DNA of 64,000 bases from Candidatus Kerfeldbacteria bacterium. GTDB lineage: Bacteria > Patescibacteriota > Patescibacteriia > SBBC01 > CAIJZX01. The stretch covers positions 334,106-398,105 of the forward strand of contig CAVSWO010000002.1 in the NCBI GenBank assembly GCA_963731735.1. The letters are read 5' to 3'. Made by a program: the position numbers and the translations under genes. Below are positions 5,166 through 51,180 of this stretch, in pieces; the stretch's first letter is position 1; every line of letters begins with the position of its first letter. Below the pieces are notes generated by a model. That model saw nothing but the letters and a program-made list of their open reading frames with translations, ran no database searches and was not told where the DNA came from.

Positions 5166-6407
5166 TTACGAAATTCTTTCCCGTTGTCCCAGCCAGGGCA
5201 GCGTCAACAGAAATAAAAATTCCAGGGATAGGTCATTCTTAAAATATGGTGTGTCAACTAGTCCATGAACCAGCACGACCAGCAGCGCGGCGGTGCTGAG
5301 CAACGCGTACATACGATCCGTCTGAGTGGCCCAGCCCCCTCGCCAACGTCGCCAAGCCAGCCAGCAGCCGGTCAGCCAAACCACTAGTCCTAAAAGACCG
5401 GTTTCGAGCCAAAGTGCCAGGTACAGATTATGCGGTTGCGAGACCAACCACTCAAGCGGCGGGAAATAATGGTGCGGCAGTTCTTCACGATAGGCTGGTT
5501 CAAAGTTGTTGGGTCCGATGCCAGTTAGCGGATGCTGGCGGACCAGGGCCCAGGAGGTTGCCCAGATTTGTTCCCGAACTGATCCAGATGAACGGCTGTT
5601 GAGATTGAAGCGTTGGGACAATTTTCCGGTTACTCCCAAAAGGCCGAGAACCAGCATCGCCGCGCCGATTGCCATCCAGGCACTTCTTTTTTTCCAGACT
5701 TGATTCGGCCAATGCCACCACAACAGTGTGAGTCCGGCCGTCACCGCCAGGTAGCCACCGAGCGATTGGGTTAACAGGAGTCCTAAACCGATCAGGCCAG
5801 AAATAATCCACCAACGGTAACCGGCGAAAAGTTTCTGGGTTAACGCTCCGACGCTGAACACAAAAAGTGGTCCGAGGTAGAGCGCGGCATAATTTGCTAC
5901 CGGCGCGAACCATGAACTCAACCGCCCCTCTTGAAGGGTGCTTCGAAACCATATCAGTTGACCCAAGCCCACGATAGCCACGCCCGCACCGCTGACCAAT
6001 GCGGCTTGGACAATCCAGGCCCGGTCTCGGGCTGTCTGAATTACTATTCGCAGCAGGGCGGCAAAGAGTAGCGGATCAACCAACCAGGCTTTGACCGCGC
6101 CCAGGCTGGCCTGACGATCGGCGGCGAAGCCGGTGGCAATCCCCCAGGCCACAATCCAAAGACTAAGTAACAACCAGGCACTCCGTGAAAGCGGCGGCCA
6201 ATACCAAGTCTGGCGTTTGGCCAAAATCGCCAGCAGAATTCCCGCCGCCGCTCCATACACCGAAAGCTCCAGCGCCGTGGTTGGAATTCCGGCCAGCACC
6301 GTCCGAAGCAAATAACTTGGCCAAGCCAAGATCAACGCTCCCAGGCCCCAGCGAGGCCGCCAAAAGCTCAGTAGCGTGATAATCGCAACTAGCAAAACTA
6401 TGACCAT
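5166..6407 (-). CDS. O-antigen ligase/polymerase (Wzy_C)-like polytopic membrane protein
   Basis: ~10 predicted TM helices, large periplasmic loop; family call from memory; start trimmed to ATG at 6407. Confidence 0.5.
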   Translation of the reverse strand: MVIVLLVAIITLLSFWRPRWGLGALILAWPSYLLRTVLAGIPTTALELSVYGAAAGILLAILAKRQTWYWPPLSRSAWLLLSLWIVAWGIATGFAADRQASLGAVKAWLVDPLLFAALLRIVIQTARDRAWIVQAALVSGAGVAIVGLGQLIWFRSTLQEGRLSSWFAPVANYAALYLGPLFVFSVGALTQKLFAGYRWWIISGLIGLGLLLTQSLGGYLAVTAGLTLLWWHWPNQVWKKRSAWMAIGAAMLVLGLLGVTGKLSQRFNLNSRSSGSVREQIWATSWALVRQHPLTGIGPNNFEPAYREELPHHYFPPLEWLVSQPHNLYLALWLETGLLGLVVWLTGCWLAWRRWRGGWATQTDRMYALLSTAALLVVLVHGLVDTPYFKNDLSLEFLFLLTLPWLGQRERIS

Positions 6408-7777
6408 AGCGGCGTTCGTTGGGCTCGCACCATGATGACGGCGGCCAAAAGTATCCAAAGTACCTGCATGATATGCGGGTAAAGAAGGCTGTTGACGAAT
6501 TGGCTGTGCAGAAAGAGCCCCAGTAGACCAGCCAACATGCCTAGTCCAAACCCTCGCCAGATGGGATCAAGCTGCTGATCCTTCCAGGTCCGCCAACATT
6601 CACGCAGCATGGCGATAAACAGCCAGATATAGGTCAGGATACCAAAGATACCGGTCGTAACCCACACGGTGAGGAAACTTGAATCCGACCCGCTGGCCGA
6701 ATGCTCCTGAACCGTATCGACATAGCCTCGATCGACCTGGACAATTGGATAGAGATTATACCCAACGCCAATCCACCAGTGTTTTTGAATAACCTCCCAG
6801 GCGTTGTGCCAAGAAACAAGTCGAAGTTTGGCAGTTTCATCCACCGTTCGAATGCCAATCACCCGCTGATTCACGCGCGGCACGAAGGCGACAATGCTCA
6901 TGGCTGTAAGCAGGCCGATCAGGAATAGCCAGCGCGATTTGATGAGGGTCACAATCCCGGCGCCAACCGCTAAGGCAACGTAACCGCTGCGTGAGAAGGT
7001 GAAGACGATTGCCACCGACATAATGGTGATCGCTAGCCACCACCAACGGGCGCGAATAAACGATTGCGAGAGGGCGATAGCCAGGCAGATGGTTGTTAAG
7101 AAGGCCAGATAGCCGCCGAGAAAATTTGGATCGAACCAGGTGGAAAGCAGGCGCCCAACGTGCGGGTCCCACCCCGCTGGTACCATAAAGGAAAAATCCG
7201 GAAAAATCCGCAGCTGTATAAACCCAAGCAGCGAAATCACCACGCCGGTCCCAATGATAAACCATAGGTACCGACGCAGGCGCTTAATGGTACGTAAAAA
7301 ATCTACGCTCATCAAGAAAATGGCGGCGTATTCAACCCAGCGAACAAGGTAGAGGCTACCGGTCATCAGCTGATCAGCGGTGTACTGACTGGCATTCCAT
7401 AACAGTGACAGGACGAACAATGCAATCATTGCCCAGAGCGGTGCGGTCAGGCTCGAAGATGGTAGTTGCCACCGGCGTGAAGCCAGTCGGCGCACTCCCC
7501 AAGCAATAATCAGCGGCGGCAATAAAACGTCGTTGACAATAATGCCGTTTTCAGAACCGGGAATCGGCAGCCGAACCAATTGTCCGATAACGATCGTCAA
7601 GATGCTGATAATAAATCCCAGCTCCGGTTTGACTACCAGCCAGCCGCCGGCCAGCAGCGCCGCCACGGCCACTGCTCCCACCAGCGTCCATTGTCCAACC
7701 ACCAGGCCAAGCACCAGGGCCATGAGGATTGCCACCGCTGGCCAAAGACGTCGAAAGACTTCCGGTCTGGGGATCAT
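6398..7777 (-). CDS. O-antigen ligase/Wzy-family polytopic membrane protein
   Basis: TFSRSGYVALAVGAGI motif typical of Wzy_C; many TM helices. Confidence 0.55.
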   Translation of the reverse strand: MIPRPEVFRRLWPAVAILMALVLGLVVGQWTLVGAVAVAALLAGGWLVVKPELGFIISILTIVIGQLVRLPIPGSENGIIVNDVLLPPLIIAWGVRRLASRRWQLPSSSLTAPLWAMIALFVLSLLWNASQYTADQLMTGSLYLVRWVEYAAIFLMSVDFLRTIKRLRRYLWFIIGTGVVISLLGFIQLRIFPDFSFMVPAGWDPHVGRLLSTWFDPNFLGGYLAFLTTICLAIALSQSFIRARWWWLAITIMSVAIVFTFSRSGYVALAVGAGIVTLIKSRWLFLIGLLTAMSIVAFVPRVNQRVIGIRTVDETAKLRLVSWHNAWEVIQKHWWIGVGYNLYPIVQVDRGYVDTVQEHSASGSDSSFLTVWVTTGIFGILTYIWLFIAMLRECWRTWKDQQLDPIWRGFGLGMLAGLLGLFLHSQFVNSLLYPHIMQVLWILLAAVIMVRAQRTPLWS

Positions 7778-8727
7778 ATGGCAGTGGGTTTATGGGTCGG
7801 ATACGAAACCAGTTGTACCAGCAGTTGCAGATATTGTTTTGTATAGTGTCGGATACGGCGGCCGGCGCGACCGAAAATCCAGCTCGGTATCCAAAACGGA
7901 AGCAGTACCAGCAAGCTGAGGATGGCCGCTAACCAGAGAGTCAGGAGCAAGCGGACTGATCCAAAATTTTTCCAATGTTTAGTCGCAAAATACCACAGCC
8001 CCCATAAAAAATTCCGACTGACTTGCGCAAAACGTTTTTCGGTCGAACCGTAATGCGTCAGTGTAAAGGAGCCGAGATACCATCGATCTTTACCCAAGTC
8101 CGCAATTCGTCGCTGCCATTCAGTTTCTTCGAGATACATGGTAAAGGCCGGATCAAAACCCTTGGTTTGTCGATAAATTTCGCTCGGAACGAGCAGGCAG
8201 ACGCCGGTTAAGTGGGCCACTCGACCGACGGTATTATGCATGGCACTCGAGTGCAGATACGGGTGCCACGGGAGACGTAACAGGATTTGTTGGACCGGTA
8301 AGCAATAATCCACGAAGACCGTCCAGGGGGTTGGAAATGATCGGTGCGCGCTGCGTTGCAGCCGGCCGTCCGAGCCCATGATCTTAGGCCCGGCCACCCC
8401 GACGTTTGGCCGGGACTGGGCGGCTTCGACAAAGGCCCGGAGTTGTCCGGGTTGCCAATCGATATCCGGATTTAATAAGAGTAACCAATCTCCCCGGGCC
8501 TGCTCCATGCCGCGATTATTGCCCGGACCATACATCCTGTTTTGGTCCAGTCGGTCGAGACGGACGTTTGGAAATTTTTCGGCTACCATGGCGGCACTGT
8601 CATCCGTCGAATGGTTGTCGACCACAAGAATTTCATGCGGCCAAGCCACGAACTCATCCGGCAGTTTTTCCAGCACCCGTCGCAGGTGATCGCGTTCGTT
8701 ATAATTGACCAGAATAATGGAGAGCAT
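7774..8727 (-). CDS. glycosyltransferase family 2
   Basis: ILVNYN...VVDNHSTD...NPDIDW (DxD) motifs; ends with TGA stop. Confidence 0.85.
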   Translation of the reverse strand: MLSIILVNYNERDHLRRVLEKLPDEFVAWPHEILVVDNHSTDDSAAMVAEKFPNVRLDRLDQNRMYGPGNNRGMEQARGDWLLLLNPDIDWQPGQLRAFVEAAQSRPNVGVAGPKIMGSDGRLQRSAHRSFPTPWTVFVDYCLPVQQILLRLPWHPYLHSSAMHNTVGRVAHLTGVCLLVPSEIYRQTKGFDPAFTMYLEETEWQRRIADLGKDRWYLGSFTLTHYGSTEKRFAQVSRNFLWGLWYFATKHWKNFGSVRLLLTLWLAAILSLLVLLPFWIPSWIFGRAGRRIRHYTKQYLQLLVQLVSYPTHKPTAI

Positions 8728-22111: not shown

Positions 22112-23254
22112 CTACCCGGCCGGCTGTCGTAAGAGCACCCGGAACAAATTCATGGAGCCATATTCAAATCCTACCCTTGCGCCATGCATCCAAAGATACC
22201 ATAAACGATAGAAGGGCCGACCAAACGCGCGTTCAATCTCTTCCTGATGACTTTCGAGATTATGAATCCACGCATTCATGGTATAGACATAATCCAATGT
22301 ATCATCTCGGAACTCTTCAATCCGGAACCCGGCCTCTGTGGCGGCCGCCATGATTTCATCGCGGCTGGGAAGATAGCCCCCGGGAAATACGTATTTCTGT
22401 GTCCAACGGTCAAGTGGTCGCGGTTGGTATCGGCCGGTCGATTGCACGACTAGGGGTGCCCCGGGTTTTAGGCGTTTACCAACCTTTTGAAAATATTTCT
22501 GGAGATGTTTTCTCCCCACATGCTCAAGTGATTCCAACATCATAATCCCGTCATACTTTTCGTTGGGCATATTGGAGATCATGTCTCGATTCTGTACCGA
22601 GACGTGCTTAGCTAAATCGTGTTTACGAATCTGTTCACGACTATAGGCGACCTGTTCAGAGCTCCGGGTAATACTCAAAATGTTCCAACCATAGTTCTCT
22701 GCTGCAAACAGCGCAAAATTTCCCCAGCCACTTCCGAGGTCTAATATTAACGCATCCTTGGGAAGTGCTAGCCAAGTACTCAGGAACCGGAGTTTATTCT
22801 CCTGAGCCTCAATAAGGGAATCTGTCTGGGTGGCATATTTCCCTCCGGAATATGACATGGAATCCTTACCTAGCAACAACTCAAAGAATGTATTTCCAAT
22901 ATCGTAATGAAATGAAATTTGACGCTGGCGAGACTGTGGTTGGCTGAGAGACGCAAGAAAGGCTTGCATTTTATTCCTCCGTGATGGATGGTTGCCTTTA
23001 AATGTGTGGCGAAGTCGTAAATATGCATCGATATCTCCATCGATGTTTACCGCCCCCTCCATGTATGACTCGCCAAAGCCGAGCGATCCCTGAGTTATTA
23101 TTCGCTGTACTGTTTCTGAATTCTTGATGGATATTGAAAATGCCGTGGGCCCTGCTTGACCAAACCGCATTTCTTTTCCGTCCCAATATTTTATAAGAAA
23201 CCCAGGACCTTCGTAAGTTTGGAAGTAGTCTTCAAGTACCTGACGATTATCCAT
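22112..23254 (-). CDS. cyclopropane-fatty-acyl-phospholipid synthase family SAM-dependent methyltransferase
   Basis: LILDLGSGWGNFALFAAENYG (SAM motif I) and CMAS-type flanking regions. Confidence 0.8.
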   Translation of the reverse strand: MDNRQVLEDYFQTYEGPGFLIKYWDGKEMRFGQAGPTAFSISIKNSETVQRIITQGSLGFGESYMEGAVNIDGDIDAYLRLRHTFKGNHPSRRNKMQAFLASLSQPQSRQRQISFHYDIGNTFFELLLGKDSMSYSGGKYATQTDSLIEAQENKLRFLSTWLALPKDALILDLGSGWGNFALFAAENYGWNILSITRSSEQVAYSREQIRKHDLAKHVSVQNRDMISNMPNEKYDGIMMLESLEHVGRKHLQKYFQKVGKRLKPGAPLVVQSTGRYQPRPLDRWTQKYVFPGGYLPSRDEIMAAATEAGFRIEEFRDDTLDYVYTMNAWIHNLESHQEEIERAFGRPFYRLWYLWMHGARVGFEYGSMNLFRVLLRQPAG

Positions 23255-23973
23255 ATACTAAATCTAGCGGTTTCGATTCCAAAAACATTCTCTCGTCGGA
23301 CACTATGCCGCGAGCGTTTTTTTCTGGATCGAAATACTCCTATGACGGTGAGTAAGAGAATAAACTGAGCGATTGCCATTCCCCAGCCAACCAGATACAT
23401 TAGCGTATCTTGTACATCCATGACACCAACAAGCAATAACACGCCTCCAATAAAAAGCGATACGAGAGCGATTGAGAATGTTTGTGCACTAGTTTTATCG
23501 CTTTCCCGGATATCTTCACTGGTAAGCTGTACTGCGTGGAGCACAACGGCAGCCATCAACACGATATACATGAAGCTTACGATATCGCTGGGTTGAAAGT
23601 AAAAGAGACCATCTGTCGAAAACCCTGGATTTGATGGCAAAGCTAGGCGAACAAACCAAAGTACCACCGCATACACCGCCACGGATGCGGTGAGGAGCTG
23701 TTGGGTATTTCGTTGGAGTTTGCTGACTGCCGCGCGCGTAAAAAAGAGTAGCGCGCCAATGTAAACTGCTGCTCCCGCGCTAATCCAAAAATTCAATGAG
23801 TCTCCTGCGGGTTTTGCGATAACGGCTGCTGACCAAACCCCGAAAGCTATGCCGGTCAAAAACAGCCCCCAGCCCATTGCCTTGGTTGTTACAGTTCGAT
23901 GCAGGCGGGGCAACAACAATCCAGCCAGGATTGTAGAAACCGTACTGAAGATGAAAAAGATGATTATTAACAT
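23191..23973 (-). CDS. polytopic membrane protein, hypothetical
   Basis: ~7 TM helices; 3' end overlaps the annotated start of the CFA-synthase ORF (true start of that gene probably internal). Confidence 0.4.
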   Translation of the reverse strand: MLIIIFFIFSTVSTILAGLLLPRLHRTVTTKAMGWGLFLTGIAFGVWSAAVIAKPAGDSLNFWISAGAAVYIGALLFFTRAAVSKLQRNTQQLLTASVAVYAVVLWFVRLALPSNPGFSTDGLFYFQPSDIVSFMYIVLMAAVVLHAVQLTSEDIRESDKTSAQTFSIALVSLFIGGVLLLVGVMDVQDTLMYLVGWGMAIAQFILLLTVIGVFRSRKKRSRHSVRRENVFGIETARFSIWIIVRYLKTTSKLTKVLGFL

Positions 23974-24117
23974 ACAGTTAAGTATTGAAATAAGTGCTTG
24001 AATTATAGCTCAATTCCCATGTAAAGTAAACGAACTTCTTAAGTGATAGTGCCCAGATTGAGTTCCAAAAGGAAGAGCGTGATTGGAGGCTTCTAATAGG
24101 CTCTCTTCTAATCAGTT

Positions 24118-24882
24118 CTACCTTTTAGGTATCGCGGTAACTGGCCTCGCCTGGAGTATTACAATTTGATTTTCCCTTGTGCATGCCCATTCAATATCCA
24201 GGGATTTCCCATAAATATTCTCAATAGTTATGGCCCTTCGTCCAACCTTATTAAGAATTGGCAACACCGTTTCCAAAATAATGGATGAGAATTCTCCGTG
24301 CGACAAGACCTCACAAACACCAGAGTTTTTATTTATTGAAACGGTTAGGGGTGATACCTGTCCACTAACGATTTTATCGCCTAATCCGGGGCTAACCTCG
24401 ATCACAAGTTTTGACACGTCGTTCGTTCGTGGGTCGACCGTAAAACAAATTCCCGAGTATTTTGCATCGATCATTTCTTGCACGATAACCGCCATCCTCA
24501 TGTTTCCTTGTAGGCCAAGGTGTTTACGATATTCTTTAATTCGATGGCTGAAACGAGATTGTGCACACCTTCGAATAAAAGAAAGGGCGTCTTTCATTTT
24601 TACATTAAGGAAGGAGTCAAACATGCCAGCATAGCTCACGCTTTGGCCATCCTCCGAGACGCCTGAACTTCGAACTGCAAACAAGCTATAGGGCTGTAAT
24701 TTCTTCTTTTCTTTCTCCGTCAATATCGTAGAATCACTGATTATATCAATTGTCTCAACGTCTACAACAAAAGTTTTTGGGATCTTTTGACCACCTTGGG
24801 CTAAACGCTGAAGATTAAAAGCTTTGCCACCAATCTGGGAGACAGTGAACTTTGTTTGAGCGGTGATTTCTTTAAGAATCAA
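24118..24882 (-). CDS. PEP synthase/PPDK N-terminal ATP-grasp (PPDK_N) domain protein, stand-alone
   Basis: GGKAFNLQRL...VRSSGVSEDGQSVSYAGMFDSFLNV. Confidence 0.65.
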   Translation of the reverse strand: MILKEITAQTKFTVSQIGGKAFNLQRLAQGGQKIPKTFVVDVETIDIISDSTILTEKEKKKLQPYSLFAVRSSGVSEDGQSVSYAGMFDSFLNVKMKDALSFIRRCAQSRFSHRIKEYRKHLGLQGNMRMAVIVQEMIDAKYSGICFTVDPRTNDVSKLVIEVSPGLGDKIVSGQVSPLTVSINKNSGVCEVLSHGEFSSIILETVLPILNKVGRRAITIENIYGKSLDIEWACTRENQIVILQARPVTAIPKR

Positions 24883-24973
24883 GGTCTCGAAAGGTTGTAA
24901 GCAAAAATAATTTTATCGTTTCAAGCGGCATCTTTATATAGTTTCATACTACCACAAAACGCCAGCATATTTC

Positions 24974-25048
24974 TGGTAGCCCCACGGGGAATCGAACCCC
25001 GATTACCGGCTTGAAAAGCCGATGTCCTAACCGTTAGACGATGGGGCC
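24974..25048 (-). tRNA. tRNA-Glu (anticodon TTC)
   Basis: GGCCCCATCGTCTAACGGTTAGGACATCGGCTTTTCAAGCCGGTAATCGGGGTTCGATTCCCCGTGGGGCTACCA; G1-U72 wobble. Confidence 0.9.
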
Positions 25049-25284
25049 ACGAATTGCTTCAACTCTTTCCGTAGCCGGCCTGATTTCTTGATTTGTAACT
25101 CTCGTCTTCGAGCTTCCCTTTTTGTAGAGAATTCCTCAACCCTTACTACTCTATATGGGCGATATGCCCTTGTCGAGCGCACGTCTCCACGATTATGCTC
25201 GTGGATGCGCTTGCGGGCATCTTTAGAAGATCCTATATAGAGACGGCCGGTCCGAAGGCTTTGTATAATGTAGACTTGGTGCAT
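25027..25284 (-). CDS. small GIY-YIG nuclease-domain protein
   Basis: VYIIQSLRTGRLYIGSSKDARKRIHEHNRG; last ~7 codons overlap the 5' end of tRNA-Glu. Confidence 0.65.
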   Translation of the reverse strand: MHQVYIIQSLRTGRLYIGSSKDARKRIHEHNRGDVRSTRAYRPYRVVRVEEFSTKREARRRELQIKKSGRLRKELKQFVAPSSNG

Positions 25285-25414
25285 AGCAATACATGCCAAG
25301 CCTGCATCCTGAACCGTTTCCGGCGGAGCCGGATCCGGCCTTTAGGCCGGAAGACGATGGGGTCAGGAGCGGGGAGAATATACGCGAAATATGCTGTGAT
25401 GTCAATCCGATTTG

Positions 25415-25451
25415 CATAAAGAGAAAGCCCCGCCAGTGTACGCGCGGGGCT
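25415..25451 (-). terminator. rho-independent terminator immediately after the TAA (25459) of the extended reading frame
   Basis: 8-bp GC stem AGCCCCGC/GCGGGGCT followed by UUCUCUUU on minus strand. Confidence 0.5.
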
Positions 25452-25458
25452 GTTGTGA

Positions 25459-25977
25459 TTACCGGTAGAGCGTCTTGATCCGGCCCCAGGATTGCTGGGT
25501 AGTCGGCGTGGCGCCAAGGACGTTCAGCGTCGCGAATCCCCAGGTTGCAGGGATGGAATGGTTCTCCGAGTCGCGGAGTAATCCATACGACCAACGAAAT
25601 TCGCAGGTGCCTGGACCGACGCCCACGAAGTGGAAGACGGCCAGCTGGCCGGGACCGGTGCCACGGCAGCCGAGTCATGCGGCATCGACTTTCAGGCTGT
25701 CGCCGGTCGGCGGAAACATCCAGAAGAAATGGTCGCAGAGCGCTTCGCTCAGTAGGGTGCCGGGTTCGGCGTTGCCCGGCTGAACGATCGTCGGATCGTA
25801 GTTGAAAACCAGGCTGTAGGCGAGCAGGTCATTGACCGGCCCGATTTCGAGCGACAGCGTGATCGGATCCCCTATGCCGACCGTCACGACCTCGGGATTG
25901 AAGGACAGTTCAGCTGCCGAAGCCACCGTGGCAGTCAGCAAGCCAGACAGACATAGCATCAAAAACAGTCGTTTCAT
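25459..25977 (-). CDS. secreted Gly-rich protein interrupted by an in-frame TGA at 25675-25677 (ORF-track part = 25675..25977); readthrough, recoding or pseudogene
   Basis: SD AGGAGG + ATG 25977; signal peptide MKRLFLMLCLSGLLTATVASA; 72 further protein-like codons after the TGA ending ...TPTTQQSWGRIKTLYR* at TAA 25459, then terminator. Confidence 0.45.
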
Positions 25978-26090
25978 TATCCCCTCCTGGTTACATGTCA
26001 TGTACGGTTCCGCGTGATGCGGCAAAGAGCTGCCCGAATATAGGTGAAAAGCCTGTTTTTGTCAATACCTATGGTACACTACGTAATCAT

Positions 26091-27119
26091 ATGAGAATTT
26101 TAGGAATTGAAACTTCCTGCGACGATACAGCGGTTGGCATCGTACACTACCAACGCCGCCGATTTACCATTGAGGCCCAAGTTACCGCCTCCCAAGCGCT
26201 GGTGCATAAAAAATACGGCGGGGTCGTCCCGGAAGTTGCGGCTCGAGAACATGCTGTTACAATTATTCCGACCCTCAAAGCAGCGCTCAAAAAAGCTGCG
26301 GCGTCTTGGGTCGATATTGATGCAATTGCGGTGACTGGTGGGCCGGGACTGAATACGGCGCTGTTGGTTGGGGTCGAGACTGCCCGCACCTTAAGTTATA
26401 GTCTCAAGAAACCACTGATTCGTGTCAATCACATCGAGGGACATATCGCCGCCAACTGGGTAACCAAAGAATCAATCACCTTTCCCGCCATCGCCCTCGT
26501 AGTTTCGGGGGGTCACACCGAGTTACTGCATATCAAACACATCGGCCGGTATTCATTGATTGGCCGTACGCTTGACGATGCGGTGGGTGAGGCCTTTGAT
26601 AAGGTCGCCAAAATGCTCCGTCTTCCGTATCCGGGCGGACCGTCAATTGCAAAAGTCGCGCTCACTGGAAACAAACGGGCCTTTAGATTTCCGGTTTCGC
26701 TCATGCAAAAGGGGAATTTGGATTTTAGTTACGCCGGGTTAAAAACGGCGGTGCTCTACGAATTGCGGGCGCATAAAAAATTGGACACGAAACTCCGGTG
26801 TGATGTCGCGGCCAGCTTTCAGCAGGCAGCCATCGCACAGTTGGTAAAGAAAACCGAGCGCGCGCTCGAAAAGACAGGCGCCAGGTCGTTATTATTAGCC
26901 GGTGGCGTTGCGGCAAATACGGTCCTACGGAATGAGCTCAAAATTGTAATGCAAAAAAAGTTCCCAACCACCAAATACTTCCAGCCACCAATCGCGTTGT
27001 GTATGGATAATGGGGTGATGATTGCCATGGCTGCTGCGCTCCGTCTGGATAAACAAAAGAAGTTGGCGTTCACCCCTTGGAAATTGCTTCGTGCCGATCC
27101 GAACTGGGAGCTGGTTTAA
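26091..27119 (+). CDS. tsaD: tRNA N6-adenosine threonylcarbamoyltransferase
   Basis: MRILGIETSCDDTAVGIV...; Kae1/Gcp family conserved throughout. Confidence 0.95.
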   Translation: MRILGIETSCDDTAVGIVHYQRRRFTIEAQVTASQALVHKKYGGVVPEVAAREHAVTIIPTLKAALKKAAASWVDIDAIAVTGGPGLNTALLVGVETARTLSYSLKKPLIRVNHIEGHIAANWVTKESITFPAIALVVSGGHTELLHIKHIGRYSLIGRTLDDAVGEAFDKVAKMLRLPYPGGPSIAKVALTGNKRAFRFPVSLMQKGNLDFSYAGLKTAVLYELRAHKKLDTKLRCDVAASFQQAAIAQLVKKTERALEKTGARSLLLAGGVAANTVLRNELKIVMQKKFPTTKYFQPPIALCMDNGVMIAMAAALRLDKQKKLAFTPWKLLRADPNWELV

Positions 27120-34065: not shown

Positions 34066-34844
34066 TATTGATTCGAAACTACTGGTGACGCCTCGGGTTT
34101 TGGTAGCGGGTGCCGGCGCAAGAACAAATACTGTTGACCCACGGTGAAGAGGGTGGATACGAACCAGTAGAGAGCCAGCCCGGCCGGCAAGGTATACGAG
34201 ATATATCCGGTAATAAGCGGAAACAGGTAGGTCATCTGTCGGTTCATGCTGCTGGTCATGGCTTCATCCCGCGCTTCCGGCGTTTTTGGCTCTTTCGGAG
34301 CAGCTAACATACGAGATTGCCAGAATTGTGAGGCGGCGGCTAAGAGTGCCATCACGACATTGTGGTTTTTAGCCAAATCGACCCACCCAAACAACGATGT
34401 ATTCAAGACGGTTGTTTCGTAAAAATGGCGCATGGCTGGATACACGTTTTGGAGTTGGTCGTGGCTGAGCATGCCCGCGTCATCAACCTTAAGTCCGTTC
34501 AGGAACACACGGAACAGGGCCCAGAGAATTGGCAATTGAATCAATATCGGCAAACATGAGGACAACGGATTGACCTTATTTTCTTTGTACAACTTCATTT
34601 GCTCGCGTGCCAGCTCTTCTTTGTTGTCCTTATATTTTTGTTGCAGCGCTTTGAGTTTTGGTTGGATGGACGTCAGTTGCCGGGAAGCGCGGATGGCAGC
34701 CAGCGACGGAGTGTAGAGAATAAACTTAATCAGCAGTGTAACCGCAATAATCGCTACGCCCATGTCCTGGCCGGGCAGGGATTTTTGCAAAAACAAAACG
34801 GCGTTAAAAATTGGTTGGTAGATGAGCAGGACGAACGGATTCAT
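34065..34844 (-). CDS. yidC: membrane protein insertase YidC (short form)
   Basis: Conserved YidC/Oxa1 core ...CLPILIQLPILWALF... Confidence 0.85.
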   Translation of the reverse strand: MNPFVLLIYQPIFNAVLFLQKSLPGQDMGVAIIAVTLLIKFILYTPSLAAIRASRQLTSIQPKLKALQQKYKDNKEELAREQMKLYKENKVNPLSSCLPILIQLPILWALFRVFLNGLKVDDAGMLSHDQLQNVYPAMRHFYETTVLNTSLFGWVDLAKNHNVVMALLAAASQFWQSRMLAAPKEPKTPEARDEAMTSSMNRQMTYLFPLITGYISYTLPAGLALYWFVSTLFTVGQQYLFLRRHPLPKPEASPVVSNQ

Positions 34845-35083
34845 GATTTATGCGGAATTACATCAACGCCGCCCGGGCTCCACGGATGACAGCGCAGGAG
34901 CCGGCGAATACCAAGCCACAACCCGCGTCCGGTGCCGTGCTCAAGCACGGCCTGTCGCGTATATTCAGAACAGGTTGGATAAAACCGACAGTATCCGTAG
35001 GGGTGGCGATCGCGAAACCAGCCATGATCAGGCGAAAGACTGATTTGATACCAATGAATAAGCTTAGCGATGGCGTTTTTCAT
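34841..35083 (-). CDS. yidD: membrane protein insertion efficiency factor YidD
   Basis: CRFYPTCSEY hallmark; start at MKNAIAKLIHWYQ. Confidence 0.85.
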   Translation of the reverse strand: MKNAIAKLIHWYQISLSPDHGWFRDRHPYGYCRFYPTCSEYTRQAVLEHGTGRGLWLGIRRLLRCHPWSPGGVDVIPHKS

Positions 35084-35411
35084 GCGGTGTATAGTGTAGC
35101 AGTTTTTCGATTTCTGCGGTAAGCGCTCGGCTTGTCTGTTCCGCGGCGCCGGGGTGGGCAATGATCAGGAAATCGTGGCACGGGGCGCGGGTGGGGACTG
35201 CGGTGACGATGGCGCGCAGGCGACGTTTGAGGGTGTTGCGCTTATTGGCGAGCTTAGAAACCTTTTTCCCGACAATAAACCCAAATCGGTTCTGTTTTTT
35301 GTTGGTGGGTTTTGTGCGGATGGTAAGCCACCGGCCGCGCAATGCCCGGCTCCCACGCCCAAAGGCCCGGAACTCGCGGTCCGCGGTTATGCGTTGTGCT
35401 CGCGGGAGCAT
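35064..35411 (-). CDS. rnpA: ribonuclease P protein component
   Basis: RLxxxxEF...FGFIVGKKVSKLANKRNTLKRRLR. Confidence 0.85.
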   Translation of the reverse strand: MLPRAQRITADREFRAFGRGSRALRGRWLTIRTKPTNKKQNRFGFIVGKKVSKLANKRNTLKRRLRAIVTAVPTRAPCHDFLIIAHPGAAEQTSRALTAEIEKLLHYTPHEKRHR

Positions 35412-35415
35412 GTGG

Positions 35416-35553
35416 TTAAACGGATACGCGCTTGCGCCCCTTGGCTCGGCGACGCTTGGTGGTGTTGCGGCCGCCCGGGGAACGTTGACGCTTTAAAAAG
35501 CCGTGGACGCGGGCTCGGCGACGTTTTTTTGGTTGATAGGTGCGTTTGGGCAT
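35416..35553 (-). CDS. rpmH: 50S ribosomal protein L34
   Basis: [45 protein letters not shown] (45 aa), missed by ORF track (<60 aa). Confidence 0.85.
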
Positions 35554-35640
35554 AGAAAATCCCGGTCAGTGTACCAGTCAGTTTGGCTTCGGTCAACCGC
35601 TATTCGTTGACCAGGGGATATGCTACATTGGCTTCACAAG

Positions 35641-35649
35641 TTATCCACA
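35641..35649 (+). promoter_or_regulatory. perfect DnaA box TTATCCACA in the rpmH-dnaA divergent region (a second, imperfect box TGTGGATTG at 35691)
   Basis: exact consensus 9-mer. Confidence 0.5.
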
Positions 35650-35744
35650 GTATATCAACTTTTTGGCTAATTTTAGCGTTTTTTCTGGCCTGTGGATTGT
35701 GCTATTATGGTCCTTGCGACTCCTTTGGCCTATTGAGTTTCTCA

Positions 35745-37112
35745 ATGAACGACACAAACCAACTCTGGCAGGCGGCGCTGGGGGAACTAGAACTCCACCT
35801 CAGTAAAGCAAACTTCACAACCTGGTTTAAAAACACCTTTATCGCCGAGCATGATGGTCGGCGCGTTGTGGTTGGTGTGCCAAATGGGTTTACCAAGGCC
35901 TGGTTAGAGCAAAAATACCACGAGGCGATTGTCAAAGCGCTCCATCACGCCAGCAATAAATCGGTTGAAGAGGTAAGTTATCGGGTTGAGTCTCCGCAGC
36001 GATCCGCCCAGGCGTCAGCGGACGCGCCAGCTAGTTCTGGTCAACCCGCGGCTCGCCCGGCTGTGTCGGCAACCAGCTCTCAAACACACACGGGTGTAAA
36101 CCCGAAACACACTTTCGAGCATTTTGTGATTGGGAAAGGTAATGAGTTGGCGCGAGCGGCCGCCAAGGCGGTCTCAGACAAGCCTGGCCAGGTCTATAAT
36201 CCGCTCTTTATTTACGGTGGGGTGGGATTAGGAAAAACACACCTTATTCAGGCGGTTGGAAATGAAATTTTGGCACGTGATCCAAATAAGCGAGTGTTGT
36301 ATGTAACCTCGGAGCGCTTTACGAATGAGTTTATTCAGGCAGTTTCGCGCGGGAGCGCGGAAAAGTTCAAGAATTTTTATCGCGGCGTTGATGCGTTGTT
36401 GATCGATGATATTCAGTTCTTATCTGGCAAGGAGGGAACTCAGGAAGAATTCTTTCATACCTTTAATGCGCTCCATCAAGCAAATAAGCAGCTGGTAATT
36501 ACTTCCGACCGGCCGCCGAAGTCGATCGCGGCGCTTGAGGCGCGCCTGCTTTCGCGCTTTGAGTGGGGCATGATAGCGGATATCGCCCAGCCCGACCTTG
36601 AAACTCGGATTGCCATCTTAGAAGCGAAGTGTCGCGAAAAGAATTATCAACTTGAACCGGAGGTGGTTGCCTATGTCGCCTCAACGGTTCAGAGTAACAT
36701 TCGTGAGCTCGAAGGGGCGCTCAACCGCCTAATTGCCTACCACCAGCTCAACAATGCCCAACCGACGCTCGAGGCCGCCAAAAACATCCTGGGGTCGCTT
36801 GCCCAGGCCCCGCGCCGCGGGGGAATTACCCCGAAACAACTGATTCAAACCGTGGCCACCTTTTTTGACCTTTCGATTGAAGACTTGGTTGGCGCCAGCC
36901 GAAAAAAAGAGCTGGTTGAGCCCCGCCAAATTGCCATGTATCTGTTACGCGAAGAATTACGCTCTTCATTTCCGGCTATCGGCAATGAGCTTGGCGGGCG
37001 TGATCACACCACGGCTATGCACGCCTGTACAAAAATCACCAAACAGATTGAGAAAGATGAAAAAACAAAACAGGATGTTTCATTAATTAAGCAGCGCCTG
37101 TACGCGGCTTGA
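35745..37112 (+). CDS. dnaA: chromosomal replication initiator protein DnaA
   Basis: GGVGLGKTHLIQAVGN Walker A, box VII, C-terminal DnaA-box-binding domain; start set at MNDTNQLWQ. Confidence 0.95.
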   Translation: MNDTNQLWQAALGELELHLSKANFTTWFKNTFIAEHDGRRVVVGVPNGFTKAWLEQKYHEAIVKALHHASNKSVEEVSYRVESPQRSAQASADAPASSGQPAARPAVSATSSQTHTGVNPKHTFEHFVIGKGNELARAAAKAVSDKPGQVYNPLFIYGGVGLGKTHLIQAVGNEILARDPNKRVLYVTSERFTNEFIQAVSRGSAEKFKNFYRGVDALLIDDIQFLSGKEGTQEEFFHTFNALHQANKQLVITSDRPPKSIAALEARLLSRFEWGMIADIAQPDLETRIAILEAKCREKNYQLEPEVVAYVASTVQSNIRELEGALNRLIAYHQLNNAQPTLEAAKNILGSLAQAPRRGGITPKQLIQTVATFFDLSIEDLVGASRKKELVEPRQIAMYLLREELRSSFPAIGNELGGRDHTTAMHACTKITKQIEKDEKTKQDVSLIKQRLYAA

Positions 37113-37359
37113 GTGGGGATGGGCTGTGGTTATGGCCTGTGAAAAAATTGTTTCTCGCGCGCACAGTCTGTGGATGTCGCGGGGAACGGCGGGCAAGGTT
37201 TTCCACGCGCGTCTTGCCTGAAAAAACTTTTCCCGATATAGCACTGTAAGTTCTCCGATTCTCCGTCCACTCCGGCCACACGTTTCCAGCTTCGCCTGAC
37301 GAGTCCGACTGAGTTTTCCCCCTCATCCACATGCCTTACTACTACCACTACAATACAAT
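37113..37359 (+). promoter_or_regulatory. candidate oriC: dnaA-dnaN intergenic region with several DnaA-box-like 9-mers (TGTGGTTAT, TGTGGATGT, TTTTCCACG, TCATCCACA) and an AT-rich 3' end
   Basis: position between dnaA and dnaN plus box-like motifs. Confidence 0.45.
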
Positions 37360-38463
37360 ATGAAATTTACTTGTACGCAGGAAAATTTATCCAAGGGACT
37401 CACCTTGGTGAGCCGTGCGGCTAGCCGCAACGTAACGTTGCCGATCCTCAACAACGTCTTGCTGGTGGCCGAACAAAACTCGATCCAGCTACAGACCACC
37501 AATCTAGAGTTGGCTGTGTCAGTAACCATTCGCGGAAAAATCGAATCCCCAGGGCGCTACACCGTGCAATCTCGTCTGCTGGCCGAGTTTATGAGTTTTT
37601 TGGAACACGAAAATATCACGCTCGAGCTCACGGACGCCGGTCTCGTGGTAACCTCGGGACACAGCCACACCACCATCAAAGGTCTGCCAGCCGATGAGTT
37701 CCCGGTTTTACCGAAGGTCAGCGACGGACAACAATTTAGCTTACCGGCCAACGAGCTGCAGCGAATGCTTGAGGGGGTGGTATTCGCAGCCGCCAATGAT
37801 GAATCACGGCCAGAAATTTCCGGCATTTATCTCCAGGCCCAAGAAAGCCGGATTACCGTGGCCGCGACCGACAGTTACCGGCTCGCTGAGCGCCACGGAA
37901 AGGCTCTGAGCGCCCCGACACAACCCGTTGCGGTTATCCTGCCATCTCGGACCGCCCAAGAGCTCCTCCGCAACCTTCCGGGAGACGCCACCGAGGTAAA
38001 AATTTCAGCCGGCGAGACCCAAATTTCGTTCCAGCTGGAAACAACGGAAATTGTATCTCGGCTAATAGAAGGCAGATACCCCGACTACCAAAACATTGTT
38101 CCCAAGCAGTTTTCGACAAAAATTACCGCTTCGCGCGACGCGCTGACCAGCAACATTCGGGCGGCCAGTTTATTTTGTAAGCCCGGGATTCATGATCTAA
38201 CGGTGCGGGTTGATGAGGGAAAAAAATCGTTGTTTCTGCAGGCCGCCAACACGCAAGTAGGCGAACACGAATCAAGCATGCCGGCCGAATATGAAGGGCA
38301 ACCACAAGAGGTGGTCTTCAATTACCGCTATTTACTCGACGGCCTCCAAAGCTTGCACGGGGAAGAAATCACTATCGAGCTGACCGACGCGCAATCCCCC
38401 GGCGTTCTTCGAGCCAGTGGCCAAGCGGACGACCTGTATTTATTGATGCCGATTCGACAATAA
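37360..38463 (+). CDS. dnaN: DNA polymerase III beta sliding clamp
   Basis: 367 aa, three-domain clamp pattern. Confidence 0.95.
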   Translation: MKFTCTQENLSKGLTLVSRAASRNVTLPILNNVLLVAEQNSIQLQTTNLELAVSVTIRGKIESPGRYTVQSRLLAEFMSFLEHENITLELTDAGLVVTSGHSHTTIKGLPADEFPVLPKVSDGQQFSLPANELQRMLEGVVFAAANDESRPEISGIYLQAQESRITVAATDSYRLAERHGKALSAPTQPVAVILPSRTAQELLRNLPGDATEVKISAGETQISFQLETTEIVSRLIEGRYPDYQNIVPKQFSTKITASRDALTSNIRAASLFCKPGIHDLTVRVDEGKKSLFLQAANTQVGEHESSMPAEYEGQPQEVVFNYRYLLDGLQSLHGEEITIELTDAQSPGVLRASGQADDLYLLMPIRQ

Positions 38464-48271: not shown

Positions 48272-49927
48272 GTGAAATTTAGTATACTGAAGACCATGCA
48301 CACGCGCTGGGAAGGGGTTCAAGCATGGGTTCGGCAGGAATGGTGGTGGCTCTCGTACCTGCTGCTGTTCGCCGTGGTGTTTGTTGGGTTGCTGGGTCTC
48401 CAAGCGAGTCCAAAATTTGCCGATCCCGACTCGTTCTACCACGCCAAAATGGCCATCCTGATTCGTGATCAAGGGTTGATTAAGAATTTTCCATGGCTCG
48501 ACCTGACCGTGCTGGGCCAAGCCTACACCGATCAACACTTACTCTACCACGTGGCCCTAATACCGTTCGTGACCTGGCTGCCGCCGGTGATGGGGGTCAA
48601 ACTCGCGACGGTTTTTTTCGGAGCCAGCTTGGCGGTGGTAGTCTATTGGCTGATGCGTTCGTTTCAGGTTCGCTGGGCCTTCGGATTTGCTGTATTGCTA
48701 TTTCTAATCCGACCCTTTGATTTCCGGATTTCACTGGCCAAAGCCCCAAGCGTTTCATTAATGATCTTGTTGATTGGGCTGGGTTGGGCATTTCACTATC
48801 ATGTCAAACGCTTAGCGGTCCTGGCTTTCGTGTATGTCTGGACCTATGGAGGATTCTTGTTACTTTCCATCGGAACGATTGCGTACGCTATAGTTTCCGC
48901 CGTCAGCAACCGGCTCACCAAGCTTCAACCCCACCGCTGGGTCGGTAAAATTTTCGCCTTAGCGAGCCCACACGCACGGCTCGCGAAACCGCGGCACCTC
49001 AACACTTGGATAGTAGTGGCCGCGCTCGGCGGAACCCTGTTGGGCGTGGTGATCAATCCATATTTTCCGGCCAATCTTTCATTTTATCTCCAGCAGTTGA
49101 TAAACATTGGCGTCATAAATTTTCGAAATGTGATCGGCGTTGGCGGCGAATGGTATCCGTATGGTTTTGTGGAACTGATCGCCGACTCAGCCTTTGCCTC
49201 ACTGCTCTTACTGCTGGCCGGGGCGGCCGCGATTATACGCTGGCGACGCCCAAGTAAACAAACCATAACGCTTGGGCTGATGGCGCTCGGGTTCTTTATT
49301 TTAACGCTGAAATCCCGGCGCTATGTGGAATATTACGTGCCATTTGCGGTGCTCTTTAGCGCCTTTAGTCTGAATGATACTTTGGGCGGTTCGGCCGGTC
49401 GGGCTTGGACGCAAGAAGTTCGGCGTCTATTTTTACGCCCTCGTTGGTCGCGCTGGGTGTTTGGGATAACGATTGGAATTATTCTGTTCGGGGCGGGGTA
49501 TTTGGCGGCGCGTGACTACGCCGGCAATTGGCGCGACTTGCGCGGTGGCTTTACGGCTAATCAGGAACAGGCGGTTAGTCAGTGGTTAATCGATAATACC
49601 AACCCCGGTGACCGGGTTGTGCACTCCGACTGGGATGAATTTCCCCTGTTGTTTTATCACAACACGCATAACACCTATATTGTTGGCCTTGATCCGACCT
49701 TTCTCTACAAAGCCGACCAAGATCGCTATTGGGCCTGGGTCGACATCACGCTTGGAAAATATACTGGCGATGTGTATCAAGCCGTGACGCAGACGCTCGA
49801 TAGCAAATGGGTTTTAGTAACCGCCGATCATAGTGCCATGAACCGGTTGTTCAAGGACGATCGGCGCTTTCGCCTTCGATATCGGGACGACGAAGCCAGC
49901 GTCTATCAAGCCGTTGGACCCTCATGA
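48272..49927 (+). CDS. large polytopic membrane protein, possible GT-C-fold glycosyltransferase
   Basis: ~13 TM helices, DPDSFYH near N-terminus. Confidence 0.35.
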   Translation: MKFSILKTMHTRWEGVQAWVRQEWWWLSYLLLFAVVFVGLLGLQASPKFADPDSFYHAKMAILIRDQGLIKNFPWLDLTVLGQAYTDQHLLYHVALIPFVTWLPPVMGVKLATVFFGASLAVVVYWLMRSFQVRWAFGFAVLLFLIRPFDFRISLAKAPSVSLMILLIGLGWAFHYHVKRLAVLAFVYVWTYGGFLLLSIGTIAYAIVSAVSNRLTKLQPHRWVGKIFALASPHARLAKPRHLNTWIVVAALGGTLLGVVINPYFPANLSFYLQQLINIGVINFRNVIGVGGEWYPYGFVELIADSAFASLLLLLAGAAAIIRWRRPSKQTITLGLMALGFFILTLKSRRYVEYYVPFAVLFSAFSLNDTLGGSAGRAWTQEVRRLFLRPRWSRWVFGITIGIILFGAGYLAARDYAGNWRDLRGGFTANQEQAVSQWLIDNTNPGDRVVHSDWDEFPLLFYHNTHNTYIVGLDPTFLYKADQDRYWAWVDITLGKYTGDVYQAVTQTLDSKWVLVTADHSAMNRLFKDDRRFRLRYRDDEASVYQAVGPS

Positions 49928-51180
49928 TGCTAAACGCGGCGTTGTGGCTGATGGTCAGCCTGCTTGGCCCCCAGCTCATATCCAGCAGTTGGCTGTCACC
50001 GTATTTTACCAGTGGCAGCGGGACCTTGCTTATCTCGGTGTCTGCCCTGATCGGCGTTCTCGTCTTTTGGATACTGGCGGGCAGCCAACGTACAGATCGT
50101 GCTCGCCTCAACTTTATGGTGGTGGTTGTTTTTTCAGGGCTGATTATTGGCCTGGCCTTTATCCGGCAACTTGATCTGCGCGGACCCACCGGCCAACCGG
50201 TTGGGATTCACGATGGTGCGGTGCAAACCGAAGTCGCCGCCAGTTTTTTACTCGACGGCAAGAATCCGTACGCGGCTGATTATTCGAATACCAAGTACGC
50301 GATAATTAATCCGCCGATTCCCGGCGGTCCGGCCGTTAATGTCGTCTGGTCGCATTATATTTACCCGCCGTTGCCGTTTGTGCTCCAGGTTCCTTGGTCA
50401 GCCCTCGGTCGCTGGTTGCATTTTGTGGCTGATGCGCGGTGGTTAACCTTGGCGGCATTTGTGGTGACTGCCGGTATCCTGATCCAACCGGCCAAAGATT
50501 GGACCAAACGGACTACTGTCGCCATTCTGACTCTTGGCAACCCGTTGCTGTGGACCTTCGCGCTGGCCGGACAGAATGATTTTTATCCTGCTCTGGGCCT
50601 AGTCGGAGCGACGTTGGCCATACGCGCCAAGCGTTGGTGGTTGGCCGGCATCACTTTCGGTCTCGCACTGACTGCCAAACAAAGCGTCTGGATGCTTGTA
50701 CCGCTGGTAATTGTTTGGCTGTGGGCCCGCTACCGACGCCAAGCACTTGCCTGGAAACCAGTGCTTTGGGGGGCGGTAGCGAGCAGCCTGGCTATCATCG
50801 GCCCCTTCCTGCTTTGGGGCCCGACCCAGCTCTATGATGACATCATCCGATATGCCTCCGGGTCAATTCCTTTTTCCTATCCAATATCCGGTTCAACGCT
50901 GCTACAATATTTGCACGTGTCTGGGTTGCTAGCGTCGCCCTGGGCAATTGTTCCGACCGCCTGGTTTCAGCTGGCGGTCGGCGTCCCTCTTTTCTGGGTG
51001 CTGGGTAGGCGACTCTGGACCCAACCAACGGCCAGCCAATGGCTCCTAGCAGCTTCGATCTTAATGCTTGGGGTACTGCTGGTCAGCCGCTATGTAAATT
51101 TAAACTATTTTGTTACGCTGGAATTCCTGGTGCTGGCCGCCTGGATTCTTCAACCTCCCAACCCGCATGTTTCGACGTGA
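49924..51180 (+). CDS. polytopic membrane protein (paralog pair A, member 1), possible GT-C/DUF2029-like
   Basis: IHDGAVQTEVAASFLLDGKNPYAADYSNT shared with next gene. Confidence 0.35.
   Translation: MMLNAALWLMVSLLGPQLISSSWLSPYFTSGSGTLLISVSALIGVLVFWILAGSQRTDRARLNFMVVVVFSGLIIGLAFIRQLDLRGPTGQPVGIHDGAVQTEVAASFLLDGKNPYAADYSNTKYAIINPPIPGGPAVNVVWSHYIYPPLPFVLQVPWSALGRWLHFVADARWLTLAAFVVTAGILIQPAKDWTKRTTVAILTLGNPLLWTFALAGQNDFYPALGLVGATLAIRAKRWWLAGITFGLALTAKQSVWMLVPLVIVWLWARYRRQALAWKPVLWGAVASSLAIIGPFLLWGPTQLYDDIIRYASGSIPFSYPISGSTLLQYLHVSGLLASPWAIVPTAWFQLAVGVPLFWVLGRRLWTQPTASQWLLAASILMLGVLLVSRYVNLNYFVTLEFLVLAAWILQPPNPHVST

Follow-up and report, generated by a model that had tools for sequence, protein, structure and literature searches.

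An in-frame TGA in a gene for a small secreted cohesin-fold protein of Candidatus Kerfeldbacteria, likely a recent nonsense allele

Organization of the locus

The window analysed here comprises 64,000 nucleotides of a Candidatus Kerfeldbacteria genome and is densely filled with clean coding sequence: 58 ORFs are intact, and the housekeeping genes are unbroken. Since yidC, dnaA (which ends in TGA) and dnaN are located in it (34068-38460), the window is chromosomal and spans the presumed replication-origin region.

A gene encoding a cohesin-like protein is located on the minus strand next to tsaD, which is divergently transcribed (true start 26091). The ATG of the cohesin-like gene (25977-25975) is preceded at a distance of 5 nt by a Shine-Dalgarno sequence (AGGAGG, 25983..25988, minus strand, read from the sequence). 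Codon 101 is an in-frame TGA (25675..25677, minus strand) in the context GCA-TGA-CTC, a UGA followed by C, and beyond it the frame stays open for 71 sense codons up to a TAA at 25461-25459. The reconstructed full-length coding sequence (25459..25977, minus strand) consists of 100 codons, the TGA, 71 codons and the TAA, i.e. 173 codons counting both stops. An ORF 25675..25977 with a good Shine-Dalgarno sequence, a signal peptide and a TGA stop had been described in a sequence-only reading of this DNA, with coordinates that proved exact on the minus strand; the signal peptide is a prediction. The continuation to the TAA at 25459 is open as described there, but its length of 72 codons includes the stop.

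The predicted Sec-type signal peptide covers residues 1-21 (25915..25977, minus strand) with cleavage after VASA. The assignment was made by reading the sequence and not with a predictor: the N-terminus (MKRLFLMLCLSGLLTATVASA/AE) contains K/R, a hydrophobic core and then A-S-A, as is typical of signal peptides. Equivalent N-termini are present in the homologues (alignment A1), and in the AF2 model residues 3-12 form an N-terminal helix of lower confidence.

A sigma-70-type promoter-like site (TTGACA-17-TATATT, 26037..26065, minus strand; 11/12 matches in a consensus scan) is located within the divergent intergenic region common to the cohesin-like gene and tsaD. A 17-nt inverted repeat with 88% complementarity connects the first codons of the cohesin-like gene (25960-25976) with the spacer of the promoter-like site (26045-26061). 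At the opposite end of the gene, an intrinsic-terminator-like element (25418..25451, minus strand) begins 7 nt past the TAA. It is composed of a hairpin (25426-25451) with an 8-bp, G+C-rich stem (AGCCCCGC/GCGGGGCT) and a 10-nt loop, followed by a U-tract (25418-25425; UUUCUCUUU). The folding energy of the hairpin is -17.2 kcal/mol (z -1.69), in agreement with the GC hairpin and U-tract reported earlier for this position. The consensus terminator scan accepts loops of 3-8 nt and therefore missed this hairpin with its 10-nt loop. Directly 3' of the TGA, no terminator-like structure was found by the terminator scan or by folding.

Just past the terminator, a second promoter-like site with the same hexamers as the first (TTGACA-17-TATATT, 25405-25377, minus strand) precedes a structured leader of 91 nt (fold z -2.8; within 25286-25405, minus strand). 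Within the leader, 22 nt (25347-25368) are an 82% copy of the beginning of the tRNA-Glu gene (25031-25052). ARAGORN and Rfam made no call on the leader with this copy, which could be a tRNA-derived remnant or the leader of the adjacent GIY-YIG nuclease gene. The GIY-YIG ORF itself (25027-25299, minus strand) enters the 5' end of the tRNA-Glu(UUC) gene (24974-25048) by 22 nt, and its last six codons and stop are tRNA-Glu sequence. The same overlap is conserved in a Kerfeldbacteria relative (L005, 5532-5836, minus strand). If both genes are co-transcribed, cleavage by RNase P would strip the stop codon from the nuclease mRNA. In another part of the window (48272-55624, plus strand), five tandem overlapping ORFs of 418-555 aa adjoin a gene for a DUF2079 membrane protein. 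Two of the five show weak matches to GT87/ALG3-type membrane glycosyltransferases and three are without a Pfam match; the region looks like a paralogous array of genes for large membrane glycosyltransferase-like proteins.

Homology on both sides of the TGA

For the searches, the two halves were fused with an X at the position of the TGA, resulting in a 172-aa product. In an exhaustive search of 1.84 billion representatives, 440 homologues were found at E <= 0.001, many of them 165-200 aa in length, with alignments that cover the whole protein, signal peptide and last residue included. A protein of 170 aa (P0003, 44% identity) is aligned over query residues 13-172 and another one of 173 aa (P0004, 40% identity) over residues 2-172. 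The alignment with a 181-aa protein (P0002) crosses the TGA position as well, and so do the 39 single-domain relatives in alignment A1.

The closest homologue of the fused protein shares 44% identity, and no close orthologue was found. A word-indexed protein search returned only the annotated 100-aa product of the gene itself (P0001, on a contig of 822,872 bp), which is a singleton among 15 billion proteins, and one relative, the 181-aa protein, with 34% identity. According to the protein searches, the cohesin-like sequence is present in one assembly only. Exact-sequence look-ups of the 100-aa product, a 55-aa internal ORF and TsaD gave no match. No relatives of the fused protein were detected in the genome contigs or viral contigs searched, and metagenome contigs contained distant or partial matches only. 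An NCBIfam model for the family was not found.

All downstream residues that are invariant or near-invariant in the family are kept in the post-TGA segment when compared with the 39 relatives in A1, including L102, G103, C104, G108, G110, F117, G123, R135, N139, W164, K168 and the terminal YR. A family HMM made without the query assigned 82.6 bits (E 1.3e-27) to the half after the TGA and 79.9 bits to the half before it. The C-terminal share of the HMM score is 0.51 here, compared to 0.47±0.05 in intact relatives (leave-one-out). No relaxation or decay of the constraint is detectable downstream of the TGA. The length of the open frame is not significant by itself: the window has 83 frames that reach a TGA after 90 codons or more, and 12 of these stay open for at least 60 codons beyond it; the 71-codon extension is beyond chance because of the family homology of the post-TGA segment, not because of its length.

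Since homology, predicted structure and the arrangement of promoter and terminator agree, the TGA is internal to the gene, as had been proposed from the sequence, and the pieces before and after it are one gene. Orthologs stopping at the equivalent position, named beforehand as the observation that would contradict this, were not seen: none of the other family members among the 150 matches listed ends there. The continuation, described earlier as protein-like and Gly-rich, is indeed coding, but its character is that of the C-terminal half of a cohesin-like beta-sandwich with a conserved C-terminal tag.

Predicted fold and position of the stop

When modelled by AF2 with A1, the fused protein is a single domain (pLDDT 93.7, pTM 0.81) with beta-strands spanning residues 22 to 154 and a short C-terminal helix (164-171). 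In a Foldseek search against the PDB, the best 50 matches were cohesins only. The best one was 2xdh, a non-cellulosomal cohesin of Archaeoglobus fulgidus (TM 0.83, rmsd 2.3 A over 135 columns, Foldseek probability 1.00). By the AF2 model and the Foldseek matches, the protein has the fold of solved cohesins, a nine-stranded jelly-roll beta-sandwich. Against Pfam Cohesin (PF00963), the fused protein scored 17.2 bits and the N-terminal half 18.6 bits, both below the gathering score of 24.1. P0002 reached 38.8 bits (profile positions 10-138). Across the family, matches to the Pfam model are weak but consistent, with E<0.01 in 21 of 40 members. The query can be regarded as a divergent member of the cohesin family by transitivity of sequence similarity, not by a direct Pfam score. 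A dockerin was not found among the 36 ORFs of the window scanned for domains.

In the model, codon 101 falls into a loop (residues 100-105) between strand 94-99 and strand 110-119. The post-TGA continuation (25459..25674, minus strand; delimited by the family HMM and A1) encodes the last four beta-strands, the C-terminal tag and the TAA. The stopped product would lack the predicted strands 110-119, 123-135, 144-146 and 149-154 as well as the tag. In cohesin jelly-rolls, the last strands add to both sheets, and a stable mature fragment of 79 residues would therefore be implausible.

The C-terminal tag

The conserved tag of the cohesin-like protein (GATPTTQQSWGRIKTLYR; 25462..25515, minus strand; alignment A1) includes the predicted helix 164-171 and corresponds to the family consensus PVPxxxxxWGxxKxxYR-COOH, located at the extreme C-terminus. 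It was found once only in the window. An unrelated secreted protein of 208 aa, encoded on metagenome contigs with 70% GC, has a near-identical tail at its end (DPTPTEQQSWGRIKTMYR; tag-bearing sites L001 157-783 and L004 83-193, both plus strand). In about 110 kb of Kerfeldbacteria-like loci, no reading frame was seen to end with the tag, and neither Pfam nor NCBIfam contains a model for it. Judged from its sequence distribution, the tag is portable and may represent an undescribed sorting or anchoring signal. It seems to have been transferred into a CPR genome in which the window, like the related loci examined, makes no other use of it. The hundreds of small secreted cohesin-fold proteins with this portable, uncharacterised WGxxKxxYR tag are the more interesting by-product of the analysis.

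Composition and genomic context

The GC3 of the cohesin-like gene is 0.73 in the N-terminal and 0.76 in the C-terminal half, compared to 0.56±0.06 (maximum 0.63) in 36 long ORFs of the window; tsaD was left out of this comparison. In contigs representing one genome per species, the best matches of TsaD were found in Candidatus Kerfeldbacteria MAGs (67-68% identity), with other Patescibacteria ranking next. Between tsaD and the conserved GIY-YIG/tRNA-Glu pair, the closest relative (L005) has two unrelated secreted-protein genes, and in two further loci (L006 and L010) the neighbourhood next to tsaD differs again. The slot next to tsaD is not syntenic in the Kerfeldbacteria relatives. A tblastn search of 66 loci with the fused protein revealed no copy in the 62 loci fetched via TsaD; only the distant metagenome loci L001-L004 were matched. 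On the basis of the atypical GC3, the non-syntenic slot, the lack of a close orthologue and the absence of the tag elsewhere in the examined loci, the gene was probably acquired horizontally from a higher-GC lineage and is probably dispensable.

Since a 22-nt copy of the 5' end of tRNA-Glu lies at 25347-25368, integration at the tRNA-Glu gene was considered as the way in which the gene was acquired. It is the GIY-YIG gene, adjacent to tRNA-Glu in L005 as well, that lies between these two repeats, and not the cohesin-like gene, and this route was dropped.

The two secreted-protein genes occupying the slot in L005 are located at 6269-8025 (minus strand). One of them encodes a 302-aa protein with a match to Por_Secre_tail, the T9SS C-terminal sorting domain (23.1 bits, below the cut-off of 27). 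Such a match is unexpected for CPR and suggests that foreign surface-protein genes have entered the slot here again. The window also contains a block with a GC3 of 0.41-0.48, below the window mean of 0.56 (22112-25300). The block includes genes for a CMAS-like methyltransferase, a membrane protein, a 254-aa protein with a partial PPDK_N match and the GIY-YIG nuclease. It abuts the high-GC3 cohesin-like gene, resulting in a compositional mosaic around tRNA-Glu.

Cause of the TGA

Among the four causes of the TGA named in the sequence-only reading, a recent nonsense mutation fits best. We consider it likely that the TGA is a real, very recent nonsense allele and the gene a young pseudogene. The gene would have comprised 172 codons for a small secreted cohesin-fold protein, with its own strong promoter, Shine-Dalgarno sequence and terminator, and a single, very recent base substitution would have converted codon 101 to TGA. 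One-step sense neighbours of TGA are GGA, TGG, CGA, AGA, TTA, TCA and TGY; of the corresponding residues, the homologues have each of G, L, S, R and W in the aligned column. This column is among the most variable of the family and is located between a conserved D-x-A and L-G-C. The residues seen there among the 39 closest relatives are G (10), L (6), T (6), V (5), A (3), N (2), S (2), Q (2), M (1), W (1) and R (1). The sense codons that had been suggested for this position, Cys, Gly or Trp, are represented by Gly (10/39) and Trp (1/39), but not by Cys (0/215 domain instances from 151 homologues).

With TGA acting as an ordinary stop terminated by RF2, translation would halt after residue 100, and the fragment devoid of the last four beta-strands and the C-terminal tag would presumably not fold. 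The locus would then be a young pseudogene or carry a nonsense allele dominant in the sampled population. By leakage at UGA-C, near-cognate Trp-tRNA might still insert Trp at position 101 and yield full-length protein at a level of at most a few percent, passively and not in a programmed manner.

Intact homologues read across the position, and the stop cuts an indivisible domain, as expected for a nonsense pseudogene. Further lesions or relaxed conservation downstream of the stop, which would also be expected, were not detected; if the TGA arose by nonsense mutation, the lack of decay is therefore compatible only with a very recent event. The same lack of decay fits functional readthrough or a base-calling error equally well and, together with the intact promoter, Shine-Dalgarno sequence, signal peptide and terminator, speaks against a nonsense allele. 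Separate production of a C-terminal piece was discarded, the only in-frame start past the TGA being a GTG at 25626 without a signal peptide, which would give a cytoplasmic fragment. Frameshifting is ruled out, both halves being in the same frame.

An error of sequencing, assembly or consensus calling, with a sense codon (e.g. GGA, TGG, CGA, TTA or TCA) in an intact gene, is a considerably less probable alternative. It would account for a downstream half without decay and for expression signals that are all intact; G, L, S, R and W, one step away from TGA, are found in the aligned column, and the sequence is known from one assembly only. On the other hand, the lesion is a substitution and not a homopolymer indel. 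The roughly 58 other ORFs in 64 kb are without broken genes, so the error rate seems low, and the clean coding outside this gene speaks against an assembly that is error-ridden throughout. By our own estimate, a random substitution error that creates a stop is also much rarer than a real nonsense allele. We infer that a mutation, and not an error of the consensus, gave rise to the TGA.

Functional readthrough is unlikely. It would require that the UGA-C is usefully decoded by a near-cognate tRNA-Trp or a suppressor, so that products of 100 and 172 aa are formed and the full-length protein is under selection. The context is suited to this, UGA-C being the weakest termination context in E. coli and weak for RF2. 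The downstream frame is perfectly preserved, and the aligned column accepts nearly any residue, W included. In wild-type E. coli, basal readthrough of UGA amounts to about 2-4%, with Trp-tRNA competing with RF2 (PMC10570021). Against readthrough, the stop is conserved in no relative (none of the 150 matches listed ends there), and no suppressor tRNA is encoded within the window. A stimulatory structure 3' of the stop was not found either (fold z -0.19). According to the model, the stop falls within one fold and does not mark off an optional extension from a core, leaving a short product without plausible function. The conserved stop and context with two functional products that define programmed readthrough are not seen here, in a comparison that includes no close orthologues.

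Less likely still, the UGA could be decoded to an appreciable extent by a variant of tRNA-Trp or in consequence of a weakened RF2, the full-length protein would be made, and the locus would be at an early, ambiguous-decoding stage of UGA reassignment. If so, it would show the beginning of a reassignment that is already complete in Gracilibacteria/Absconditabacteria. Reading of UGA is promoted by tRNA-Trp variants with an anticodon stem of 4 bp (PMC13092985).

A changed genetic code, whether that of a donor (UGA read as Gly in code 25, as Trp in code 4) or a partial reassignment in the host, is very improbable. Some other CPR lineages (Gracilibacteria/Absconditabacteria, code 25) read UGA as Gly, and Gly is the most common residue in the aligned column of the closest relatives (10/39). 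However, if the TGA encoded Gly, it would do so at only 1 of 19 Gly positions, the other 18 Gly codons being GGN. Code-25 and code-4 lineages generally have low-GC genomes, whereas the halves of the gene have 58-64% GC and a GC3 of 0.73-0.76. The earlier statement that TGA is otherwise a genuine stop here holds true: TGA ends 20 of the 61 long stop-to-stop ORFs of the window, including dnaA and the GT2 gene. Same-frame extensions are no longer after TGA (median 21 codons) than after TAA (18) or TAG (15.5). ValS (841 aa), a PBP (967 aa), DnaA, DnaN, RuvB and TyrS are intact under table 11. Neither widespread in-frame TGA codons nor a loss of TGA as terminator, the marks of an alternative code, is seen in the window. 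With TGA as an ordinary terminator and intact table-11 ORFs, a changed code was rejected.

Selenocysteine, directed to the UGA by a downstream SECIS hairpin (GGCCAGCUGGCC), deserves almost no credence. It had been proposed on account of the in-frame UGA and a short palindrome about 25 nt downstream. The palindrome exists (GGCCAGCTGGCC, 24 nt past the TGA), but it could form a 4-bp stem only, and the MFE structure does not use GGCCAGCUGGCC as a hairpin. Shuffled sequences fold as well as the 101 nt that follow the UGA (z -0.19). A permissive Rfam scan of 24800-26300 identified tRNA-Glu only; to our knowledge, Rfam holds no general bacterial SECIS model. The aligned column is hypervariable and without a single Cys, and in the model the position lies in a surface loop of a structural beta-sandwich and not at a redox site. 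The search for selenocysteine machinery proposed earlier was negative within the 64-kb window: SelA, SelB and SelD were not among the 36 ORFs scanned, and the only tRNAs are tRNA-Ile and tRNA-Glu, with no tRNA-Sec. Nothing relevant was found in the literature on selenocysteine in CPR or on Kerfeldbacteria. Selenocysteine is effectively refuted by the column without Cys and the lack of a SECIS-like fold.

A reading in which a 100-aa protein really ends at the TGA, followed by 213 nt of non-coding 3' UTR, as the 100-aa ORF annotated by gene callers (P0001) would have it, is refuted by alignment A1, the AF2 model and the family HMM, given that the downstream frame matches the family profile (E 1.3e-27), completes the predicted cohesin fold and ends with the family C-terminal tag exactly at the stop before the terminator.

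Comparison with known systems

The main consequence concerns annotation: what was deposited as a 100-aa protein represents the front half of a secreted protein of 172 aa with a predicted cohesin fold, and an entry as a disrupted gene would be appropriate for the locus. More generally, recoding does not follow from an in-frame TGA in a CPR genome, even if the frame behind it is perfectly conserved; selenocysteine and a change of the code can be dismissed on the strength of the aligned column, the fold and the usage of TGA.

By its predicted fold, the protein belongs with non-cellulosomal cohesin modules (PF00963, 2xdh), with which it shares the beta-sandwich. It differs from these in being a stand-alone secreted protein of about 170 aa with a distinct, conserved C-terminal WGxxKxxYR tag, in scoring below the Pfam gathering score and in carrying a premature stop. 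Neither a dockerin partner nor a scaffoldin context was identified here.

As in bacterial selenoprotein genes such as fdhF, a UGA is located within the coding frame. In contrast to these, homologues with Cys or Sec at this position, a SECIS-like structure, a redox function and, in the window, Sec machinery are all lacking. The Gracilibacteria/Absconditabacteria with code 25 are CPR too, and Gly is common at the aligned position here, but dnaA and many other genes of the host end in TGA, long table-11 ORFs are intact, and the gene itself uses GGN for its 18 Gly codons throughout. An in-frame UGA followed by an open frame of coding quality is also known from leaky termination, as in the A1 protein of phage Qbeta or the basal readthrough of E. 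coli. In known programmed readthrough, however, a conserved stop parts a functional core from an extension, whereas the stop described here is unique to one sequence and bisects a fold.

Ordinary bacterial nonsense pseudogenes differ from the present gene in one respect: no further lesions are found here, so that the allele must be extremely young, not yet fixed, or an artefact. In other respects the likeness is close. Such pseudogenes likewise have a single in-frame stop inside one domain whose position is spanned by intact homologues, and foreign composition and a non-syntenic location, as observed here, are typical of dispensable acquired genes. With what defines selenoproteins, programmed readthrough and recoding tested for and not found, the event belongs with the ordinary nonsense pseudogenes.
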